Positions 6,916 through 57,412 of a stretch of DNA of 64,000 nucleotides are shown here, in pieces. The notes beneath the pieces were generated by a model. That model saw nothing but the letters and a program-made list of their open reading frames with translations, was not told where the DNA came from and did not search any database. This stretch comes from Candidatus Falkowbacteria bacterium (GTDB lineage: Bacteria > Patescibacteriota > Patescibacteriia > UBA11705 > JABHMO01): the NCBI GenBank assembly GCA_018674305.1, contig JABHAL010000004.1, positions 256,446-320,445 of the forward strand. The letters run 5' to 3'. The position numbers and the translations under genes are program-made. Every line of letters starts with the position of its first letter. Positions within the stretch are counted from its first letter, which is position 1.

Positions 6916-7104
6916 AATATTTTTAAATCCTAACTCCTAAACTTTAAATTCTAAACAATTTTTAATTACAAATTTTTAAATTTTAATAATTTGAGTTTGT
7001 TTAGGGTTTATATATTAGGTTTTAGAACTTATCGTTCATTAAGAGTTAAGCTTATTCTATTATAGCAGATTTGTCAATCCTGTCATTCTATAAGATGGGG
7101 TATC

Positions 7105-7133
7105 TTGACATGGTCGAGTTATAGTGTTATACT
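7105..7133 (+). promoter_or_regulatory. Sigma70-like promoter: TTGACA-N17-TATACT
   Basis: Hexamers and spacing read directly; precedes the SD of the 7184 CDS. Confidence 0.55.
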
Positions 7134-7183
7134 CTGGTGAATGGTGTTTTGGTTCATTTTAGTTACTCAGCAAGGAGGAAAGC

Positions 7184-7684
7184 ATGAGTAGACTGAGAGT
7201 AGTTCTGGTTGGTCTTCTGTCTCTGGTAGTACTACTGGCTGGAACAACGAGTTCGCAGGCCAAGGATCGAAATGAAAAACTGAAGGATGCTGTTCCGGTG
7301 ATTGCCGTGGCCTGGGAAAACGCCCAGCCACAGTATGAGCATGAACTTCAGGTTGTGTTCATGTATTACAATGTGGAAATGACATTGGCTGAAGTTTTCA
7401 GTCATGCCAGATTCATGGTTCCTAACAGGACGAATGAACTGGGCTGTCTGGTCTATGAGGATTCAGGTTTTGTGCCTTTCAGTCGGGTTGTGGTTTGTCC
7501 AAAGGACAAGCGAGTGATTGTGCAGGATGATCTGAGTGCTGGAGCAAGTTTGAGCTTCGCTACCAAGTTGAGACCTTACTATCTGCCTCACCTTCTTGGC
7601 GCGTTGTATGACATCGACACAAGCAGGATTGTTGATTGCGAAGGCAACGCAGAAAAATGTTCTTCATTGATGAAGAGTGAATAA
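7184..7684 (+). CDS. Secreted hypothetical protein with a signal peptide, in a GC-rich island
   Basis: SD aaggagg; N-terminal signal sequence LVGLLSLVVLLAGTTSSQA; several Cys; local GC clearly above flanks. Confidence 0.55.
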   Translation: MSRLRVVLVGLLSLVVLLAGTTSSQAKDRNEKLKDAVPVIAVAWENAQPQYEHELQVVFMYYNVEMTLAEVFSHARFMVPNRTNELGCLVYEDSGFVPFSRVVVCPKDKRVIVQDDLSAGASLSFATKLRPYYLPHLLGALYDIDTSRIVDCEGNAEKCSSLMKSE

Positions 7685-7763
7685 GTAAACCTAAGAGTTA
7701 ATCAAATCATATTTGGTTGACTCTTTTTTTTTGTAAATTTAGCCAATGTCTGGCAAGGTTTAT

Positions 7764-7792
7764 TGACAAAATATAAAAAATGTGCTATAGTG
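7764..7792 (+). promoter_or_regulatory. Sigma70-like promoter: TTGACA-N17-TATAGT
   Basis: Read directly from the sequence. Confidence 0.5.
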
Positions 7793-7860
7793 TCTTTGTT
7801 ACGTGGCTCCAGCTTGGCTTACCCCCAAGTTGGTTGGTTCTTTCACACCGGAGGCGCAAG

Positions 7861-8373
7861 ATGCGTCGTGTCTCATTTTTGGTAATTGTAGTGATAGCAG
7901 TTTTGTTTAACGCTCAGGCAATGGCCTGGGAGAAGTTTGAAGATGAGCAGATCAACACTGAAGAGCAATTAATGCTCATGGTTGATTACTCCAAGCCGAT
8001 TCCTGCGCTGACCGTTCTCCAAGTCAAGGTTGAAAAACAAACCAAGACAATTAGAAAGGAGAATGGGGCAACCTGCGAGCAAGAGGTTTCTCGTAAGAAT
8101 GTGTATGGCCGTCGAGTCATGCCCGAACTTACGCCAGAAGGAGAGCAGATAGTAATTTATCTGCAGCCGATTCCTGAGTTGGACTGGATTGTAGTCAAGC
8201 CTCAGGAGCAGAAAGCAATGGCTGTAGTTTTACTACCTGGTTCTCGCACCGCCTACTATCCTTTCAAGTTAGTCAAAGAACTTAAGGATGGCAGCAAGCT
8301 TTATTCTTTGTCCATTGACACGGTTGTGCAATGCGACGCTGAAGGTAAGTGTCAAACCGAAGAAAAGAAATAG
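7861..8373 (+). CDS. Secreted hypothetical protein. Start placed at MRRVSFLV after SD ccggagg; GC-rich island
   Basis: Signal peptide VIVVIAVLFNAQAMA; the listed ORF begins earlier, but an SD plus signal peptide support the internal start. Confidence 0.5.
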   Translation: MRRVSFLVIVVIAVLFNAQAMAWEKFEDEQINTEEQLMLMVDYSKPIPALTVLQVKVEKQTKTIRKENGATCEQEVSRKNVYGRRVMPELTPEGEQIVIYLQPIPELDWIVVKPQEQKAMAVVLLPGSRTAYYPFKLVKELKDGSKLYSLSIDTVVQCDAEGKCQTEEKK

Positions 8374-8386
8374 AAAGGAGAAGGTT

Positions 8387-8608
8387 ATGATTCTTGATTC
8401 ATTTTGTGCAGCCGCGGTTTCGCTTTTGGCTTTGTTCTTGATTATGGTGGGTTGCCTGGCAACTGCCAGTGGTGCAGTGCAGGCGTTTGTAGCCCTGTTT
8501 GCCACCAAGGTAATTCTGGGCAAGGTAGCATTCTTTCTCGGGATGTCGATTCTGGGAGTTGCTGCCTTTGTAACAGGGCTCAAGCTGGATAACCTATCGG
8601 TAGATTAG
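8387..8608 (+). CDS. Small two-TM membrane protein; GC-rich island
   Basis: SD gaaaggagaagg; two hydrophobic helices. Confidence 0.45.
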   Translation: MILDSFCAAAVSLLALFLIMVGCLATASGAVQAFVALFATKVILGKVAFFLGMSILGVAAFVTGLKLDNLSVD

Positions 8609-8623
8609 TTTTTATCTCAACCA

Positions 8624-8662
8624 AAGAGCTGACTTCTCATACGAAGTCAGCTCTTTTCTTTT
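8624..8662 (+). terminator. Intrinsic terminator closing the GC-rich island
   Basis: 13-bp perfect stem aagagctgacttc / gaagtcagctctt followed by a T-run. Confidence 0.7.
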
Positions 8663-8704
8663 AAAAAGATTGAAAAATTATTAAATTAAGTGTATGTTTA
8701 GGAT

Positions 8705-10042: not shown

Positions 10043-10384
10043 ATGATTGAGTTAGACCCTACACTTATTAAGCCTAGATACGCTTGTCCATTTTTTGGTT
10101 TTGCCCGTAGTGGCGGTAGGTTGGTGGTTAAGCATGGTGATTGCTGTTGTTTGCAAAATGGGCGTGTTTGTACTTTGAAAATTACAGGGAGGAAGCCAGA
10201 TTGGGAAGATTGTGGATCTAATTGTAATGAAAATTTTGAGAAAGTGGCAAGTCTTGCTAGGTTCTGTCGAATTTTTCCAAGTGAGTTTGCTCCACAACAA
10301 GTGGATGATAGGAAAAACTGGACAGGGATTTCTCTGAAGGTGTGGGTTGAATATGTAATGGGTGAAAATGTACCAAGACCGTAA
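10043..10384 (+). CDS. Cys-rich small hypothetical protein (9 Cys including a CCC run)
   Basis: ORF with SD (aagaggatagaATG); followed by a hairpin and T-run near 10405-10440. Confidence 0.4.
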   Translation: MIELDPTLIKPRYACPFFGFARSGGRLVVKHGDCCCLQNGRVCTLKITGRKPDWEDCGSNCNENFEKVASLARFCRIFPSEFAPQQVDDRKNWTGISLKVWVEYVMGENVPRP

Positions 10385-33016: not shown

Positions 33017-33045
33017 TTGACATAATCGAGACATTGTGCTATATT
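33017..33045 (+). promoter_or_regulatory. Promoter TTGACA-N17-TATATT
   Basis: Read directly. Confidence 0.5.
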
Positions 33046-33123: not shown

Positions 33124-34506
33124 ATGCAGAGAAACCATGTGATTATTGGTTTGATCCTACTAGGAGTAATTTTCCTAGCGATTTCTTTACCACTCGGACT
33201 GTTTTGGGTGGCGAAGAGCGCAACCCAAGATGAATGGAATTCCAAGGTTAGTGGTCGTCGGACACCAGCTGAGATTAAGGGAATTATGGACGCTATGGTT
33301 AGGTATAACCAAGAGCCACCAAACTTTCTTCCGCAGTCTGGATTAGATGATCACCTTTGTGCAGCAACAGTAATCAACGCAATGAATTTCATTGTCGGTG
33401 AAGACCTGTTGCAATCTGTACCAGCTTGGTTTTTTCAAAAAACCAATCAGGACAAATTGACTTTGGTGTTTGATCGATCTGATGACTTTACTGTTGAAGG
33501 CAGTTCAGTTGTTGAAAAAAAAGATCGTGGCTTTTGGTTAAGTAAGATTTTACCAGATCCTAATGGTATGTACGTTCTTGGGTATTTGTACCGAGATAGT
33601 GTAGCCATGGGAACTTTGGCAAAAAAGGAACTAGGCGCAACGTTGAATTCACATTTGATGCTACTTTTACCAAAGGTTGGTGAGCATCGTTGGGGATTTC
33701 ACTTGTTCCACGCGCCCGGCAAAGAGCACCTTAATCCGGTCTTGATTGAAAGGCTGGATGACAGGATGGCCAAGGATTTCGACCTGATCTACATTTGGCA
33801 GATCAAAGGAATTGAGTTGCCAGAAAAAGGTGAGGACATGTTCGTGGTGAATGATTCTTTACCTTATGAAAAGGTTCATTCGCATTTGAACAATGGTCCG
33901 GAGTTTTTGGAATATTACTTAGATACAATTGCTGTGTGGTGGCTGAATTTTGGTCGCTACGAGCAGTTTCCCGATGTTGTTAAACTCCATGACGGAGTGG
34001 TTAAAGTACCGCTTAACGGTAAAGTGTTTCATGGAAAAGTTTTGGGCTTTTACAAAAAAGTCCCGATCTACTATCATGGACACGAAACCCAAGCTCGAAG
34101 CAACTTTGGTCAAACCTGGCAGTGCGTTGAATATGCAAACAGGTTTTTGGTTAAAGCTTGCGAGCATCGCAATCTAGAAAGGACTGGTCATGCAGACAGT
34201 TATTTCTGGAAAGCGAAGGCTAAGGGGTTGGAATCATATCTGAATGGTAGCTTGACCGCACCACAGCCAGATGATTTGCTCATATTTGATAAGTCAGATT
34301 CAGATGGTAAGGTCGGTCACATAGCAGTTATCACTAGCGTTGATAAAGATAAAGTTTGTTTCGTGCAACAGAACTTTGGCAAGCGATGGTATGACTGTTT
34401 GCCAGTTGTGGTTTCTGATCATAATTGGTACATTGAAGCAGGAAAACCTTATCCAGCACTTGTTGCTGGTTGGGTTAGAGCTAAGAATAATGCAGTAAAC
34501 TTATAG
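33124..34506 (+). CDS. Membrane-anchored CHAP-domain protein (putative peptidoglycan amidase/peptidase); GC-elevated
   Basis: N-terminal TM; C-terminal CHAP catalytic Cys (QCVEYANRF) and His (GHIAVITSV). Confidence 0.55.
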   Translation: MQRNHVIIGLILLGVIFLAISLPLGLFWVAKSATQDEWNSKVSGRRTPAEIKGIMDAMVRYNQEPPNFLPQSGLDDHLCAATVINAMNFIVGEDLLQSVPAWFFQKTNQDKLTLVFDRSDDFTVEGSSVVEKKDRGFWLSKILPDPNGMYVLGYLYRDSVAMGTLAKKELGATLNSHLMLLLPKVGEHRWGFHLFHAPGKEHLNPVLIERLDDRMAKDFDLIYIWQIKGIELPEKGEDMFVVNDSLPYEKVHSHLNNGPEFLEYYLDTIAVWWLNFGRYEQFPDVVKLHDGVVKVPLNGKVFHGKVLGFYKKVPIYYHGHETQARSNFGQTWQCVEYANRFLVKACEHRNLERTGHADSYFWKAKAKGLESYLNGSLTAPQPDDLLIFDKSDSDGKVGHIAVITSVDKDKVCFVQQNFGKRWYDCLPVVVSDHNWYIEAGKPYPALVAGWVRAKNNAVNL

Positions 34507-34520
34507 AGCAAGGAGAAAGA

Positions 34521-35048
34521 ATGAAAGGGACTAAGAAACTTTGTTGTATGATTGCTCTGGCTATGTTGTCACTATTGCTCATGGGCGGTGGTGGACCTGA
34601 TTACAATGGTTGTGATTGTGACTGGGATAGCGATAGTTCTTCATATGAAGCATCTGAGCCAGATCCATGCCAAATTGCTAAGCGAGCTGCCTTTGAAAAA
34701 GGCCAAAAGGCTGGGAGGAATCAGGCTGAAAGTGTTGCCGAGAAAAATCGCATGGAATTGCATCAGGAGATTGATCTTAAGCAAGCTACTATCGATAAGT
34801 TGAAGGCTGAAATGAAGGCGATTCAGGAAGTTGCCAAAATTGAGGCTGAACAAAAACCCGAGGATCTCCAAACTCAGCTGATAAAGATTATTACTGTGAA
34901 GAAGGGATACTGGGTGAAGAAGCATGTGGATGAGGTAGAAGGTTCGGATATTCGAGCCACCTACATTTGCAATTCCTGGGAATGGGGAAAAGCGAATCCA
35001 ACGGTGTTTCCGGGGGATAAACTCAAAGTCTGCAAGTTTTCTGAATGA
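34521..35048 (+). CDS. Secreted/lipoprotein-like coiled-coil protein; hypothetical
   Basis: Signal peptide with LMGGGG; SD aaggagaaagaATG. Confidence 0.45.
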   Translation: MKGTKKLCCMIALAMLSLLLMGGGGPDYNGCDCDWDSDSSSYEASEPDPCQIAKRAAFEKGQKAGRNQAESVAEKNRMELHQEIDLKQATIDKLKAEMKAIQEVAKIEAEQKPEDLQTQLIKIITVKKGYWVKKHVDEVEGSDIRATYICNSWEWGKANPTVFPGDKLKVCKFSE

Positions 35049-38105: not shown

Positions 38106-38312
38106 TTAAGCTGCATCAAGGTACCTTTCAACTTTTTCTTTCATTTTTGGTTTGGGTGCTCCGGGAAAGAGGATTAAATCGTCGGGTCCACTTCTGGAAC
38201 TGCAACCACCAGGACCAGCTTCCATTTTCTCCTTTTCATCGTCCTCAGGACACTTGAAGTTTAACAACTCGTTAATAAGAACACTTTGCAATGGTTGGCG
38301 TAGAGTTTTCAT
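38106..38312 (-). CDS. Small GC-rich hypothetical protein (68 aa; start at MKTLRQP after SD ggaggttaaaATG)
   Basis: ORF plus SD; composition unlike neighbours. Confidence 0.3.
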   Translation of the reverse strand: MKTLRQPLQSVLINELLNFKCPEDDEKEKMEAGPGGCSSRSGPDDLILFPGAPKPKMKEKVERYLDAA

Positions 38313-40265: not shown

Positions 40266-40484
40266 CTAGCGCAACACTCCCGCAGTAGGAAAACGCGTTA
40301 TTTTCGGAAGACCATTTTCAGTTTTACTTATCGATGAAAAACCAGTTCCACCACCAAGTCCAGACATCTTTACTTCACGAACGTGTAAAACATTTGAGTT
40401 ACTCACTCTCGGTGTCAACTGTGTGCAGCAATTTGCAGCAGTGTGTAATCTGCTTCTCGTAAAAGGATAAAATTTTGCCCGCAT
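40266..40484 (-). CDS. Small GC-rich hypothetical protein (72 aa) with its own strong promoter and SD
   Basis: Minus-strand TTGACA-N17-TATACT (40543-40572) followed by aaggagg-N6-ATG. Confidence 0.4.
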   Translation of the reverse strand: MRAKFYPFTRSRLHTAANCCTQLTPRVSNSNVLHVREVKMSGLGGGTGFSSISKTENGLPKITRFPTAGVLR

Positions 40485-40676: not shown

Positions 40677-40705
40677 ATTGACAAAATCATAATAATTTGC
40701 TATAC
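40677..40705 (+). promoter_or_regulatory. Plus-strand promoter TTGACA-N17-TATACT (...tttgcTATACT), near-identical in architecture to the divergent one
   Basis: Read directly. Confidence 0.5.
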
Positions 40706-40830
40706 TCCAATGTTGAGTATTTGGCTATAATGCTTGTATAGCTAAAGACTTGGAAGATATAATTGTTTTTCCATAGCAGCTCTAATAGTATGTTGGAGCT
40801 GTCATTGGGCAGATAAACAGGAGGTGTCAT

Positions 40831-41007
40831 ATGTCCAGACATAGTAAGAGGCATAAGTCTCGAAAAGTGAAAGAGTATGATCCTCACCGTGTCATGCGAG
40901 AAATTGCTAGGACGTTGATTGGCTCAAAACCCAGACAGGTCCATTCGGGTAAAAAGGGCCAAAAGGGTTATGATCGCAAACGTGAAAGAGCAATTCCCAA
41001 CTATTAA
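40831..41007 (+). CDS. Small, very basic protein (58 aa, MSRHSKRHKSRKVKEY...)
   Basis: Strong SD acaggaggtgtcatATG; not in the ORF track (<60 aa); preferred over the antisense ORFs. Confidence 0.45.
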   Translation: MSRHSKRHKSRKVKEYDPHRVMREIARTLIGSKPRQVHSGKKGQKGYDRKRERAIPNY

Positions 41008-51530: not shown

Positions 51531-51725
51531 TTAGTTGCTCATTTCGAACAACTCTCGGTCGACCTGTTTGCGAACAGCCTGCTTGCTGTTGCGTCGCACC
51601 AGTCGCCGTGCCAATCGTTTCATGTTCCGCGGGTGACAGCCGTACGGGTTGCAACAGGTGCAACGCCAACCTCCAGGACCCGCTTGCAACTTACCCTTTC
51701 CGAAGTACTCCTTGGCCAAACTCAT
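51531..51725 (-). CDS. Small basic Cys-rich protein (CTCCNPYGCH) in a ~58% GC islet
   Basis: SD gggaagg-N5-ATG; strong compositional contrast; the opposite-strand ORF looks non-coding. Confidence 0.35.
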   Translation of the reverse strand: MSLAKEYFGKGKLQAGPGGWRCTCCNPYGCHPRNMKRLARRLVRRNSKQAVRKQVDRELFEMSN

Positions 51726-51883
51726 TTGCACCTTCCCGGTTATTAAAGCTCTTTATTGAGCTATAATGAAACCGGGGTATGTGCTTCGATGTGTTGAAGT
51801 TCATGTTATCCTCCATGAATTGAATTGAACAAAGAACATAAGATGATATCATACACATTTGGTTTTGTCAAGTATAACTGGTT

Positions 51884-51946: not shown

Positions 51947-52132
51947 CTATTTTTCCATTTCTTTGATTGCAGAACCTATTCCACTTCCTTCTTTTCTGTA
52001 ATCTTCGAGCGTTTTATCGCTGCCGGTTTTCGGAGGTGGCTTCTTCACAACCGGAACGCTGGACGGGTGAGTATGGCCGGTACAGCCAGCGAGAAAACAA
52101 AGGCACATTACGGTAAGTAGCAATCTCTTCAT
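51947..52132 (-). CDS. Small lipoprotein (lipobox LAGC)
   Basis: MKRLLLTVMCLCFLAGC signal/lipobox; SD taggagg; GC-rich. Confidence 0.5.
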   Translation of the reverse strand: MKRLLLTVMCLCFLAGCTGHTHPSSVPVVKKPPPKTGSDKTLEDYRKEGSGIGSAIKEMEK

Positions 52133-56955: not shown

Positions 56956-57412
56956 GCCATAAACAAGCGAGTAAGCCGGATTCTGTTTTAGCTGTCATCT
57001 ATCTGGGCCAAAGATTACTCTTTGGCTCACGCGGGCTACCAAAACTTGCCCTTGCACTCAGGTAAGGATTTAGCCGTTTCACCCTTGATGTTTCCATCAA
57101 GACTAACCCCGAAGGGTTCCGGGAAATCACTTTCCACGGCGTCCCGATGTTGCTTTCGCAATTCGGGACACCTTGACTCTTGCGAGTCTCGGCGTCTCTG
57201 CTCGCACCTCTATCTCACGATCGACAGGAATTACCTGTTACCCGTGTCAATTAAATAACCGAGTGTCCGGACTTTCCTCCCTTCTTCGCTCTTCACTCCG
57301 TTCAGAGCTACGTAGGGCAAGCCAGTCTCATAAGTTGATTAGGACTAGCCTGCCCTTCGAAGCTCTCGCGAAGCAGAGGGCGAAGAAGGGCGACAGTTCT
57401 GCTTGTTTATGG
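56956..57412 (-). ncRNA. rnpB: RNase P RNA (bacterial type). The 13-bp P1 helix GCCAUAAACAAGC / GCUUGUUUAUGGC defines the ends within about 10 nt
   Basis: Minus-strand P4 signature GGGAGGAAAGUCCGGAC (rc of 57265-57281), 3' P4 strand ACAGAAUCCGGCUUAC (rc of ~56970-56985) and AAGGGUGAAACGG. GC-rich block with no credible ORF; a TTGACA-N17-TATATT promoter starts transcription at the P1 5' end. Confidence 0.75.

Follow-up and report, generated by a model that had tools for sequence, protein, structure and literature searches.

A block of 1.58 kb with a raised content of guanine and cytosine (GC) lies between the divergent core genes rbfA and murE (positions 7084-8665) in a contig of Candidatus Falkowbacteria, a lineage within the candidate phyla radiation (CPR/Patescibacteria). 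The whole stretch of DNA that was analysed, referred to below as the window, comprises 64 kb. The block encodes three proteins, here called P1, P2 and P3, all of which are deposited as 'hypothetical protein' according to exact-sequence look-ups, and the question that it raises is whether it is foreign DNA, as a preliminary description of the window had proposed when it pointed to a horizontally acquired secreted effector/toxin-immunity or surface module, or a resident of this locus. The reading that we favour, at a rough probability of 0.55, is that the block is a lineage-restricted, vertically inherited and fast-diverging cassette of exported proteins which occupies a variable slot and probably faces a co-evolving partner. 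The observations that carry this reading are that a sister lineage has the same three genes in the same slot and order, and that their promoters, a ribosome-binding block and a leader are better conserved than the proteins.

The position of the block, between the minus-strand genes rbfA and nrnA and the plus-strand gene murE, was confirmed by Pfam; the left neighbours are gyrA (plus strand), nrnA (DHH/DHHA1, minus strand) and rbfA (minus strand), and the right neighbours are murE (plus strand) and then rpoB/rpoC. The three open reading frames (ORFs) were found at the coordinates reported previously and are organised in two transcription units, P1 alone with a terminator and leader-P2-P3 with a strong terminator. 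The features are as follows, with GC3 standing for the GC content at third codon positions and 'sister' for the sister lineage.

7034-7078, minus strand: left boundary, conserved rbfA promoter/leader block GTTCATTAAGAGTTAAGCTTATTCTATTATAGCAGATTTGTCAAT; one base differs in the sister
7105-7133, plus strand: P1 promoter, TTGACA-N17-(TG)TATACT; 11/12 match, upstream TG
7162-7183, plus strand: P1 ribosome-binding block GTTACTCAGCAAGGAGGAAAG, 21 nt; 100% identical in the sister
7184-7684, plus strand: P1, 166-residue precursor (ORF, GC3 0.47); full-length in-frame orthologue in the sister
7693-7735 (7693-7725 in the scan), plus strand: P1 intrinsic terminator, 15-bp AT-rich stem and U9; -14.9 kcal/mol, z = -3.9 against shuffles
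7763-7791, plus strand: P2-P3 promoter, TTGACA-N17-(TG)TATAGT; 11/12 match, upstream TG
7806-7849, plus strand: P2 leader element, 44 nt, consisting of the hairpin CCAGCTTGG-CTTACCC-CCAAGTTGG at 7809-7833 plus UUGGUUCUUUCACACC
7861-8373, plus strand: P2, 170-residue precursor (ORF, GC3 0.49); sister protein P0028 36% identical
8387-8608, plus strand: P3, 73-residue hydrophobic membrane protein (ORF, GC3 0.51); 71-residue ORF in the sister
8623-8656, plus strand: terminator closing the cassette, 14-bp perfect stem and U-tract; -22.8 kcal/mol, z = -7.6 against shuffles
8666-8704, plus strand: right boundary, murE promoter block from the promoter scan, TTGAAA-N17-TATGTT; nearly identical in the sister

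The rbfA block at the left boundary is also recognisable in two further relatives (L006 and L007) and holds the minus-strand -10 TATAAT of a promoter-like site at 7086-7059.

The sister proteins were obtained from an exhaustive phmmer search in which P1, P2 and P3 were concatenated and compared with 1.84 billion representatives, and which returned one new relative each for P1 (P0027, 48% identical over the matched stretch) and P2 (P0028, 36%); nothing new was returned for P3 in the same pass. P0027 and P0028 are encoded together on the short contigs L086-L091, in the order nrnA-rbfA, ORFs of 162, 172 and 71 residues, and murE-h113-rpoB, so that slot and order are those of the window. The two lineages were compared by amino-acid identity, nonsynonymous distance (dN) and fourfold-site distance (d4); the d4 values of the cassette genes rest on about 30 sites per gene.

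gyrA: amino-acid identity 96%, dN 0.019, d4 0.42
rbfA: amino-acid identity 95%, dN 0.031, d4 0.62
rpoB: amino-acid identity 95%, d4 0.46
nrnA: amino-acid identity 87%, dN 0.067, d4 0.74
murE: amino-acid identity 80-83%, dN 0.112, d4 0.91
P1 and P0027: amino-acid identity 45-47%, dN 0.43, d4 1.97
P2 and P0028: amino-acid identity 36%, dN 0.58, d4 1.08
P3 and the 71-residue ORF: amino-acid identity 65-69%, dN 0.25, d4 0.72

The silent divergence of the cassette was similar to or somewhat above that of the flanks and its amino-acid change was 4-30 times faster, with dN/d4 ratios of about 0.2-0.5 compared with at most about 0.12 in the flanks. The blocks of P2 that are conserved in the sister include VDYSxPxPxLTV, IYLQPxPxxDWIVV and YYPFK, and P3 shares 19 identical residues in one run. 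A cassette that the sister lineage shares in place was not acquired recently, and the syntenic occurrence of the same three genes on L086-L091 is the very observation that the preliminary description had named as speaking against its own proposal. The comparison shows that the ancestor common to the species and the sister lineage already carried the cassette, which has kept its place by inheritance ever since.

The conservation of the regulatory signals was seen both in the alignment and in a scan of the sister contig. The P1 promoter of the sister reads TTGACA-17-TGnTATGAT, with both hexamers kept and a diverged spacer, and the P2 promoter of the sister is a 12/12 match (TTGACA-17-TATAAT) with a nearly identical spacer. 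The P1 terminator is replaced in the sister at the same place by a different tandem hairpin with U7 (-29.4 kcal/mol, z = -5.0), and the final terminator is kept, with changes in the loop and one change in the stem that still pairs as G.U. The earlier statements that each secreted gene has its own host-style promoter (TTGACA-N17-TATAnT; in the scan 11/12 with TG in each case) and that a strong terminator closes the block (8623-8656, z = -7.6) were both borne out. The promoter scan found 17 near-consensus promoters in the window, 16 of them intergenic and located before core and accessory genes alike (including rbfA, the RNase P RNA gene and a CHAP gene), and the cassette promoters belong to this genome-wide type.

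The 44-nt leader of P2 was 100% identical in all contigs of the sister lineage, while P2 itself was 36% identical. Its hairpin (9 pairs, 5 of them GC) is followed by TTGGTTCTTT, was scored as terminator-like in the scans of both lineages and was the sole stable and centroid element in the fold of the 79-nt untranslated region (UTR). Neither an alternative antiterminator pairing nor a leader peptide was found in this UTR, a comparison of the leader with Rfam gave zero matches and no known riboswitch fold, and neither the window nor the 91 fetched loci contained a second copy of the element. Given that the loop and the tail are invariant too, the leader may be an attenuator, or a sequence-specific binder may attach to it; it shares with leader attenuators a 9-bp GC-rich hairpin and a U-rich tract between promoter and start codon, but the invariance of its loop and 3' tail is not required of a plain terminator. 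The true start of P2 is at 7861, to which the P2 gene of the sister corresponds; the start at 7780 that is used for P0006 and by some gene callers sits inside the -10 region of the promoter.

The signal peptides that had been described in the ORFs at 7184-7684 and 7861-8373 were confirmed (slashes below mark cleavage sites). The Kyte-Doolittle maxima of P1 and P2 (19-residue windows) were 2.2-2.3 and occurred at the N-terminus only, and both proteins show the Sec signal peptidase I pattern with n-, h- and c-regions, SQA/K and AMA/W sites and no further transmembrane segment by hydropathy; this signal-peptide character is retained in the sister orthologues. The signal peptide of P1 consists of MSRLR, VVLVGLLSLVVLLAG and TTSSQA/KD with cleavage at about A26/K27, and leaves a mature protein of about 140 residues (15.9 kDa, isoelectric point (pI) 5.2); that of P2 consists of MRR, VSFLVIVVIAVLF and NAQAMA/WE with cleavage at about A22/W23, and leaves about 148 residues (17.0 kDa, pI 5.2). 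The cysteine pair C152/C159 near the C-terminus of P1 (...CSSLMKSE) is the only one conserved, with C88 and C105 not kept in the sister, and the conserved cysteines of P2 are C72 and a C158-x5-C164 loop close to its C-terminus (...CQTEEKK). No lipobox was found at the cleavage region of P1 (LLAG-T) or P2, neither of which has a cysteine there, and the two proteins have no LPXTG motif and no C-terminal hydrophobic or transmembrane segment, so the label of a surface module was not upheld. P3 starts 13 nt past the stop codon of P2 with its own Shine-Dalgarno site AAGGAGAAGG and has hydrophobic residues at 6-40 and 47-65 with K41/K46 in between. Two transmembrane segments, as described previously, are the likeliest topology by hydropathy, and three are possible. 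The IMVGC sequence of P3 is not a lipoprotein signal, as there is no charged n-region and the hydrophobic stretch continues after the cysteine.

Structure prediction, which had been proposed as a check on the two secreted proteins, gave a usable model for P2 and a poor one for P1. The AlphaFold2 model of P2, made from a two-sequence alignment, had a predicted local distance difference test score (pLDDT) of 72.6 (about 80-87 over residues 40-170) and a predicted template modelling score of 0.61. It predicts an all-beta protein of ten strands, in which C158 and C164 would bracket the loop of the last hairpin (strands 154-158 and 164-168).

Searches with sequence and structure returned few relatives. 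Pfam, NCBIfam, PHROGs and PADLOC gave zero matches for P1, P2, P3 and h113 (the protein encoded between murE and rpoB), and in a word-indexed search of 5.8 billion clusters P1, P2 and the protein encoded at the same junction in L007 returned only their own clusters. No relatives of the cassette proteins were found among IMG/VR viral contigs, and a phage origin was rejected; sequence-profile searches of PDB returned nothing. Foldseek comparisons of the P2 model with PDB and BFVD gave zero matches at E <= 0.001, with no TM-score above 0.34, so that the Hcp/tail-tube, SSB and lipocalin-like names in the Foldseek lists, all at TM-score <= 0.34, were regarded as noise, and the weak P1 model likewise had zero matches in PDB at E <= 0.001. 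Metagenome scans with the P3 alignment and the leader pattern were empty but carry no information, as this collection does not return the window species either. A paralogous relation between P1 and P2 was not demonstrable, only the C-terminal loop being alignable (BLASTP E = 0.13, hhalign probability 1%). Variation by a diversity-generating retroelement or by repeats was rejected: there is no second copy of any cassette segment and no pair of template and variable repeats in the 64-kb window and the genes are almost monomorphic, though no explicit search for a reverse transcriptase was made. The literature held no precedent for this cassette; the 'hypervariable gene' of Gracilibacteria (PMC6851277) is repeat-driven and concerns variation within one gene, and is not comparable.

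The base composition of the cassette stands out from that of the window. The mean GC content of the window was 36.1% (standard deviation 3.5 in 500-nt windows), compared with 44.6% for 7100-8662 and 45% for 7084-8665, with a peak of 47.6% in 500-nt windows; the ORFs had 46.5% (P1), 45.0% (P2) and 49.1% (P3), the immediate flanks 27-36% and the 300 nt on each side 27-31%. The contrast reported earlier (about 50% against about 35%) was thus found again (44.6% against 36.1%), with 50% being a slightly generous figure. The excess falls mainly on third codon positions. The GC3 values of 0.47 (P1), 0.49 (P2) and 0.51 (P3) were the top three among 54 ORFs, the other 51 having 0.30 +/- 0.05, and the fit to the window's own codon usage, in a measure resembling the codon adaptation index, gave z = -3.8 (P1), -3.9 (P2) and -5.6 (P3), so that the sliding-window and codon-usage check suggested in the preliminary description showed a strong difference. 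Among individual codons, CTG made up 35% in the cassette and 7% in the window, TTA 6% and 36%, and AAG 78% and 26%. Ordinary translational selection is not the explanation, because the highly expressed core genes rpoB and rpoC have a low GC3 of 0.24.

The same excess is present in both lineages. Pooled third-position frequencies of A/C/G/T were 0.21/0.18/0.30/0.31 and 0.19/0.20/0.31/0.31 in the two cassettes, compared with 0.32/0.11/0.16/0.40 in the flanking genes of both lineages, and the GC content at fourfold sites (GC4) of conserved residues was 0.37-0.54 in the cassette compared with 0.15-0.34 in the flanks. This persistence fits a maintained state. A strand-asymmetric A-to-G bias at third positions was considered and dropped, since C also rises there (C/(C+T) from 0.25 to 0.41, G/(A+G) from 0.31 to 0.59), and an argument from saturation against a relic of donor composition was too weak, with fourfold distances of 0.7-2.0 on about 30 sites per gene. 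In a simple model of exponential decay, in which each lineage has 0.35-1 substitutions per site, a donor relic with an original GC4 of about 0.66-0.93 is still allowed. The DNA may stem from a donor richer in GC, by a transfer long ago, or from local turnover.

The content of the slot between rbfA and murE differs among relatives. In the nearest species-level reference (L006, murE 78% and gyrA 78% identical) it is empty, the distance from rbfA to murE being 114 bp, and the murE promoter block is recognisable about 23 nt from the rbfA block; as the two blocks are adjacent in this genome, the cassette amounts to a sharp indel of 1.58 kb (7084-8665). Absence at the junction is mixed, the cassette missing in L006, present in the closer sister and replaced by other content in L007, L009, L011 and L012. 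The slot of L007 (murE 74%) holds a single orphan of 165 residues with a signal peptide and C-terminal cysteine pairs, whose layout resembles the cassette units (TTGACA-17-TGnTATGCT, a small UTR hairpin, AAGGAGG and a terminator) and whose GC3 is 0.69 compared with 0.41-0.44 for the L007 locus. In L011 there is a 138-residue ORF with a signal peptide and cysteines among other genes, and L009 and L012 have unrelated genes. A small exported cysteine-containing protein thus occupies the slot in three of the six lineages that share the rbfA/murE junction. The L007 protein showed no significant homology to P1 or P2, the signal peptides alone matching; at so high a divergence rate a shared origin of the slot orphans would leave no detectable trace, and comparisons of profiles were non-significant. 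More distant relatives usually have a ruvA-like gene upstream of murE, which indicates that the rbfA/murE junction is a feature of this sub-clade. Neither an integrase nor a transposase was found at the locus, the neighbours of the cassette being core genes, and a search for att-like direct or inverted repeats gave only chance AT-rich repeats at its borders. ARAGORN detected zero tRNA genes in the whole window.

Three explanations of the GC-rich DNA itself have to be set beside the one favoured here. A horizontally acquired islet, that is, foreign DNA from a GC-richer donor placed between rbfA and murE and keeping the donor's composition, would account for the strongest composition and codon-usage outliers of the window, for the clean 1.58-kb indel relative to L006 and for the patchy distribution among relatives, and as the decay model at d4 of about 0.7-2 permits an ancestral GC4 of about 0.66-0.93, an old transfer that predates the split of the two lineages is possible. 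We nevertheless regard an islet as unlikely: the sister shares the cassette in place, integrase, tRNA and att-like or inverted repeats are missing, no homologue was found in other taxa (5.8 billion clusters, 1.84 billion representatives) or in viral contigs, the promoters, ribosome-binding sites and terminators are of native type and better conserved than the genes, and the GC3 of the orphan in the L007 slot is outlying too, which suggests that the trait belongs to the slot or the gene class and not to one donor. Of the earlier proposal, the atypical composition, the clean indel and the exported products stand, but not recency, hallmarks of mobility or a donor homologue. More speculative, and in our view somewhat less probable than such an islet, is that rbfA/murE is a gene-turnover slot in which the GC-rich orphans of each lineage, coding for small exported proteins stapled by a disulfide (P1, P2, the seemingly unrelated 165-residue protein of L007 and the 138-residue protein of L011), form one fast-evolving family beyond recognition, with a beta fold in P2 that is absent from PDB, a GC content maintained by a local process (biased gene conversion, the slot being one that recombines, or mRNA selection) and not by a donor, and a 44-nt leader that would be a new cis-regulatory RNA tying expression to host contact. 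In AT-rich genomes, GC-rich islands between genes are often RNAs, one GC-rich island of the window is RNase P RNA and each unit of the cassette has its own promoter and terminator, all of which would suit one or two structured RNAs with ORFs that arose by chance. This explanation is nonetheless extremely improbable, given that full-length in-frame ORFs of similar lengths, with indels in whole codons, are kept in the sister at 52-68% nucleotide identity, that the GC content at first codon positions exceeds that at second positions, that a Shine-Dalgarno site precedes each ORF and the signal peptides are conserved in character, that conservation tracks the reading frames, with nucleotide conservation lowest within the ORFs and highest in the UTRs, and that Rfam gave zero matches in 7000-8700 even at E <= 1. 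On this evidence the ORFs are evidently real protein-coding genes, not RNA.

For the function of the proteins, a role on the outside of the cell, where it meets a co-evolving partner, seems most likely. P1 and P2 would be released outside the cytoplasmic membrane and stabilised by a C-terminal disulfide, and would act on, or be seen by, a co-evolving partner such as a host-cell surface, a phage or a competitor, which would explain the fast divergence on a conserved core. P3 could be a membrane-resident partner of P2 (a tether, an export helper or a means of self-protection), and the leader hairpin might gate or stabilise the P2-P3 transcript. The toxin-immunity idea of the preliminary description, in which P2 and perhaps P1 are secreted toxins or bacteriocins and P3 is the co-transcribed membrane immunity protein, draws on the location of P2 and P3 in one operon, 13 nt apart. 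A small polytopic membrane protein directly downstream of an exported protein is the usual class II bacteriocin-immunity layout, which this gene order matches; rapid divergence is typical of antagonistic modules, and a GC-elevated CHAP peptidoglycan hydrolase gene at 33124-34506 makes extracellular attack functions plausible. The idea is quite doubtful all the same, since Pfam, NCBIfam, PADLOC and PHROGs gave no toxin or immunity family match, the mature proteins are acidic and of 16-17 kDa and not small cationic peptides, and a double-glycine leader is missing, as are a dedicated ABC exporter and a modification gene in the vicinity. Toxin and immunity partners usually co-diverge, but P3 is far more conserved than P2 and P1 has no partner gene. 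An accessory role in envelope housekeeping, as lineage-specific structural or assembly factors tied to murE that evolve fast through weak constraint, would agree with the location directly upstream of murE in both lineages, with a ratio of nonsynonymous to synonymous change (dN/dS) below 1 around a conserved core, with near-monomorphism within the species and with a dN of P3 (0.25) that is not far from that of murE (0.11). We consider it still less probable than a toxin-immunity pair: with promoters of its own and a strong terminator ahead of a separate murE promoter, the cassette is not co-transcribed with murE, it is absent from L006 despite the same rbfA/murE junction, distant relatives usually carry a ruvA-like gene upstream of murE, and the proteins have no similarity to divisome or wall families.

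Several observations weigh against the favoured reading of an inherited cassette of exported proteins that faces a co-evolving partner. No domain and no structural neighbour was found for the cassette proteins in these searches, the signal-peptide and transmembrane calls were made by hydropathy and inspection, and the AlphaFold2 model of P1, from a two-sequence alignment, was poor (pLDDT 52). The fold energy of the whole 79-nt UTR was no better than that of shuffles (z = -0.27) and, the leader being identical in both lineages, no covariation can support its structure. With dN/dS below 1 and only two lineages, positive selection and relaxed constraint are not separable, and within the species the cassette genes are almost monomorphic, with single-residue variants only, and accordingly give no sign of diversifying selection within the population.

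A life attached to other microbes is assumed for the CPR/Patescibacteria; the proteins that mediate it are largely unknown, and unannotated orphans make up most of those that are exported. This group of bacteria is also known to rely on type IV pili. P1 and P2 recall the D-region of type IV pilins in their Cys-x(5-6)-Cys loop near the C-terminus of a small exported beta-rich protein, but they differ from pilins in having no class III prepilin leader (G/FxxxE), no hydrophobic N-terminal helix and no match to a pilin family or fold. Like orphan secreted effector-like genes, those of the cassette are short, carry signal peptides, have no homologues outside a narrow lineage and show high protein divergence in a variable slot beside conserved core genes. 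Bacterial ORFans are said to be generally AT-richer than their genome; the cassette genes, by contrast, are markedly GC-richer, and their dN/dS is below 1. Genomic islets share with the cassette an atypical composition and codon usage, sharp boundaries and absence from the nearest reference. The cassette differs from them by the lack of mobility genes, of tRNA or att repeats and of a donor homologue, by its native signals, by being shared in place with the sister and by an equally high GC content in both lineages after substantial divergence. With class II-type Sec bacteriocin operons it has in common the layout of an exported protein followed within 13 nt by a small membrane protein, but mature proteins of about 140-150 residues (15.9/17.0 kDa, pI 5.2) fall outside the range of cationic peptides below 10 kDa, and the double-glycine leader, the transporter or accessory genes and the family match of class II loci are lacking, with P3 more conserved than P2.

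The cassette is a fresh example of a familiar feature, fast-evolving secreted orphans in a variable slot, with two traits that are worth attention, the persistent GC-richness and the invariant leader. According to one report (PMC12206443), the cultivated members of the group are all episymbionts. The cassette is a reasonable candidate for an interface with a host, a phage or a competitor, and offers a concrete target for further work. It also calls for caution in island calling, as recent transfer did not follow here from an atypical GC content and a clean indel, and the equal GC excess in two long-diverged lineages raises the question of what maintains GC-rich orphans in an AT-rich reduced genome.

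Variable junctions were also seen elsewhere in this region, with 2.8 kb between gyrA and nrnA in L007 (5132-7917) and 1.7 kb between murE and rpoB in L006 (11309-13063); the rbfA/murE inserts of L009 (1580-5279) and L011 (6423-10000) measure 3.6-3.7 kb. It seems that several turnover slots lie between the core genes of the region. In the window, h113 (10043-10384, plus strand), located between murE and rpoB, encodes 113 residues with eight cysteines, including a CCC run, and no signal peptide; it is 42% identical to its sister counterpart (dN 0.63), though the adjoining rpoB is 95% identical, and its position 53 is polymorphic (D/G/A) within the species. The sister murE is longer than the 434 residues in the window, with 456 residues in L087 (2780-4150) and 498 in L090 (1121-2617) owing to internal insertions, and is otherwise 80% identical. 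In L004 the murE of the window species is split into ORFs of 176 and 247 residues by a frameshift or an assembly error.

The other GC-rich islets that had been listed as recurring in the window do exist, but they are weaker (42.5-46.5% GC) and heterogeneous. At 33124-35048 (plus strand) a 460-residue protein that has a hydrophobic segment at its N-terminus and a CHAP domain, of the peptidoglycan amidase/peptidase kind, at its C-terminus (Pfam E = 2.7e-11) is followed by a 175-residue orphan; the two genes have GC3 values of 0.40 and 0.43 and share a promoter at 33017 (TTGACA-17-TATATT with TG). From its domain, the CHAP protein is possibly an exported enzyme that attacks cell walls. The small ORFs at 38106-38312, 40266-40484 and 51531-51731 (all minus strand) have good Shine-Dalgarno sites. 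Those at 38106-38312 (68 residues) and 51531-51731 (about 64 residues) have a common K-x-x-AGPGG motif (local alignment z = 4.3 against shuffles), which in the latter, with a GC3 of 0.66, is followed by the cysteine-rich WRCTCCNPYGC; family searches gave zero matches for either, and they could be small peptide precursors. The ORF at 40266-40484 (72 residues) forms a divergent pair with one at 40831-41007 (plus strand, 58 residues, very basic), each with a strong Shine-Dalgarno site and a TTGACA-17-TATACT promoter with TG (40571-40543 and 40678-40706), and the P2 promoter region resembles the promoter at 40678 (83% over 29 nt). At 51947-52132 (minus strand) there is a candidate lipoprotein of 61 residues (signal MKRLLLTVMCLCFLAG with cleavage before C, GGAGG Shine-Dalgarno site, GC 46%), which is not in the protein collection with these ends.

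The strongest islet, at 56.8-57.5 kb with 49% GC, was not in the earlier list and corresponds to RNase P RNA. The class A model matched in full at 56956-57333 (minus strand) with 85.9 bits, below the Rfam gathering score of 100, and E = 1.4e-24, and a TTGACA-17-TATATT promoter with TG lies upstream at 57449-57421. Seven of the ten near-consensus promoters with an extended -10 TG precede GC-rich islets (P1, P2, CHAP, 40266, 40831, 51531 and RNase P RNA), and the GC-rich units of this genome tend to stand alone as transcription units behind strong promoters.

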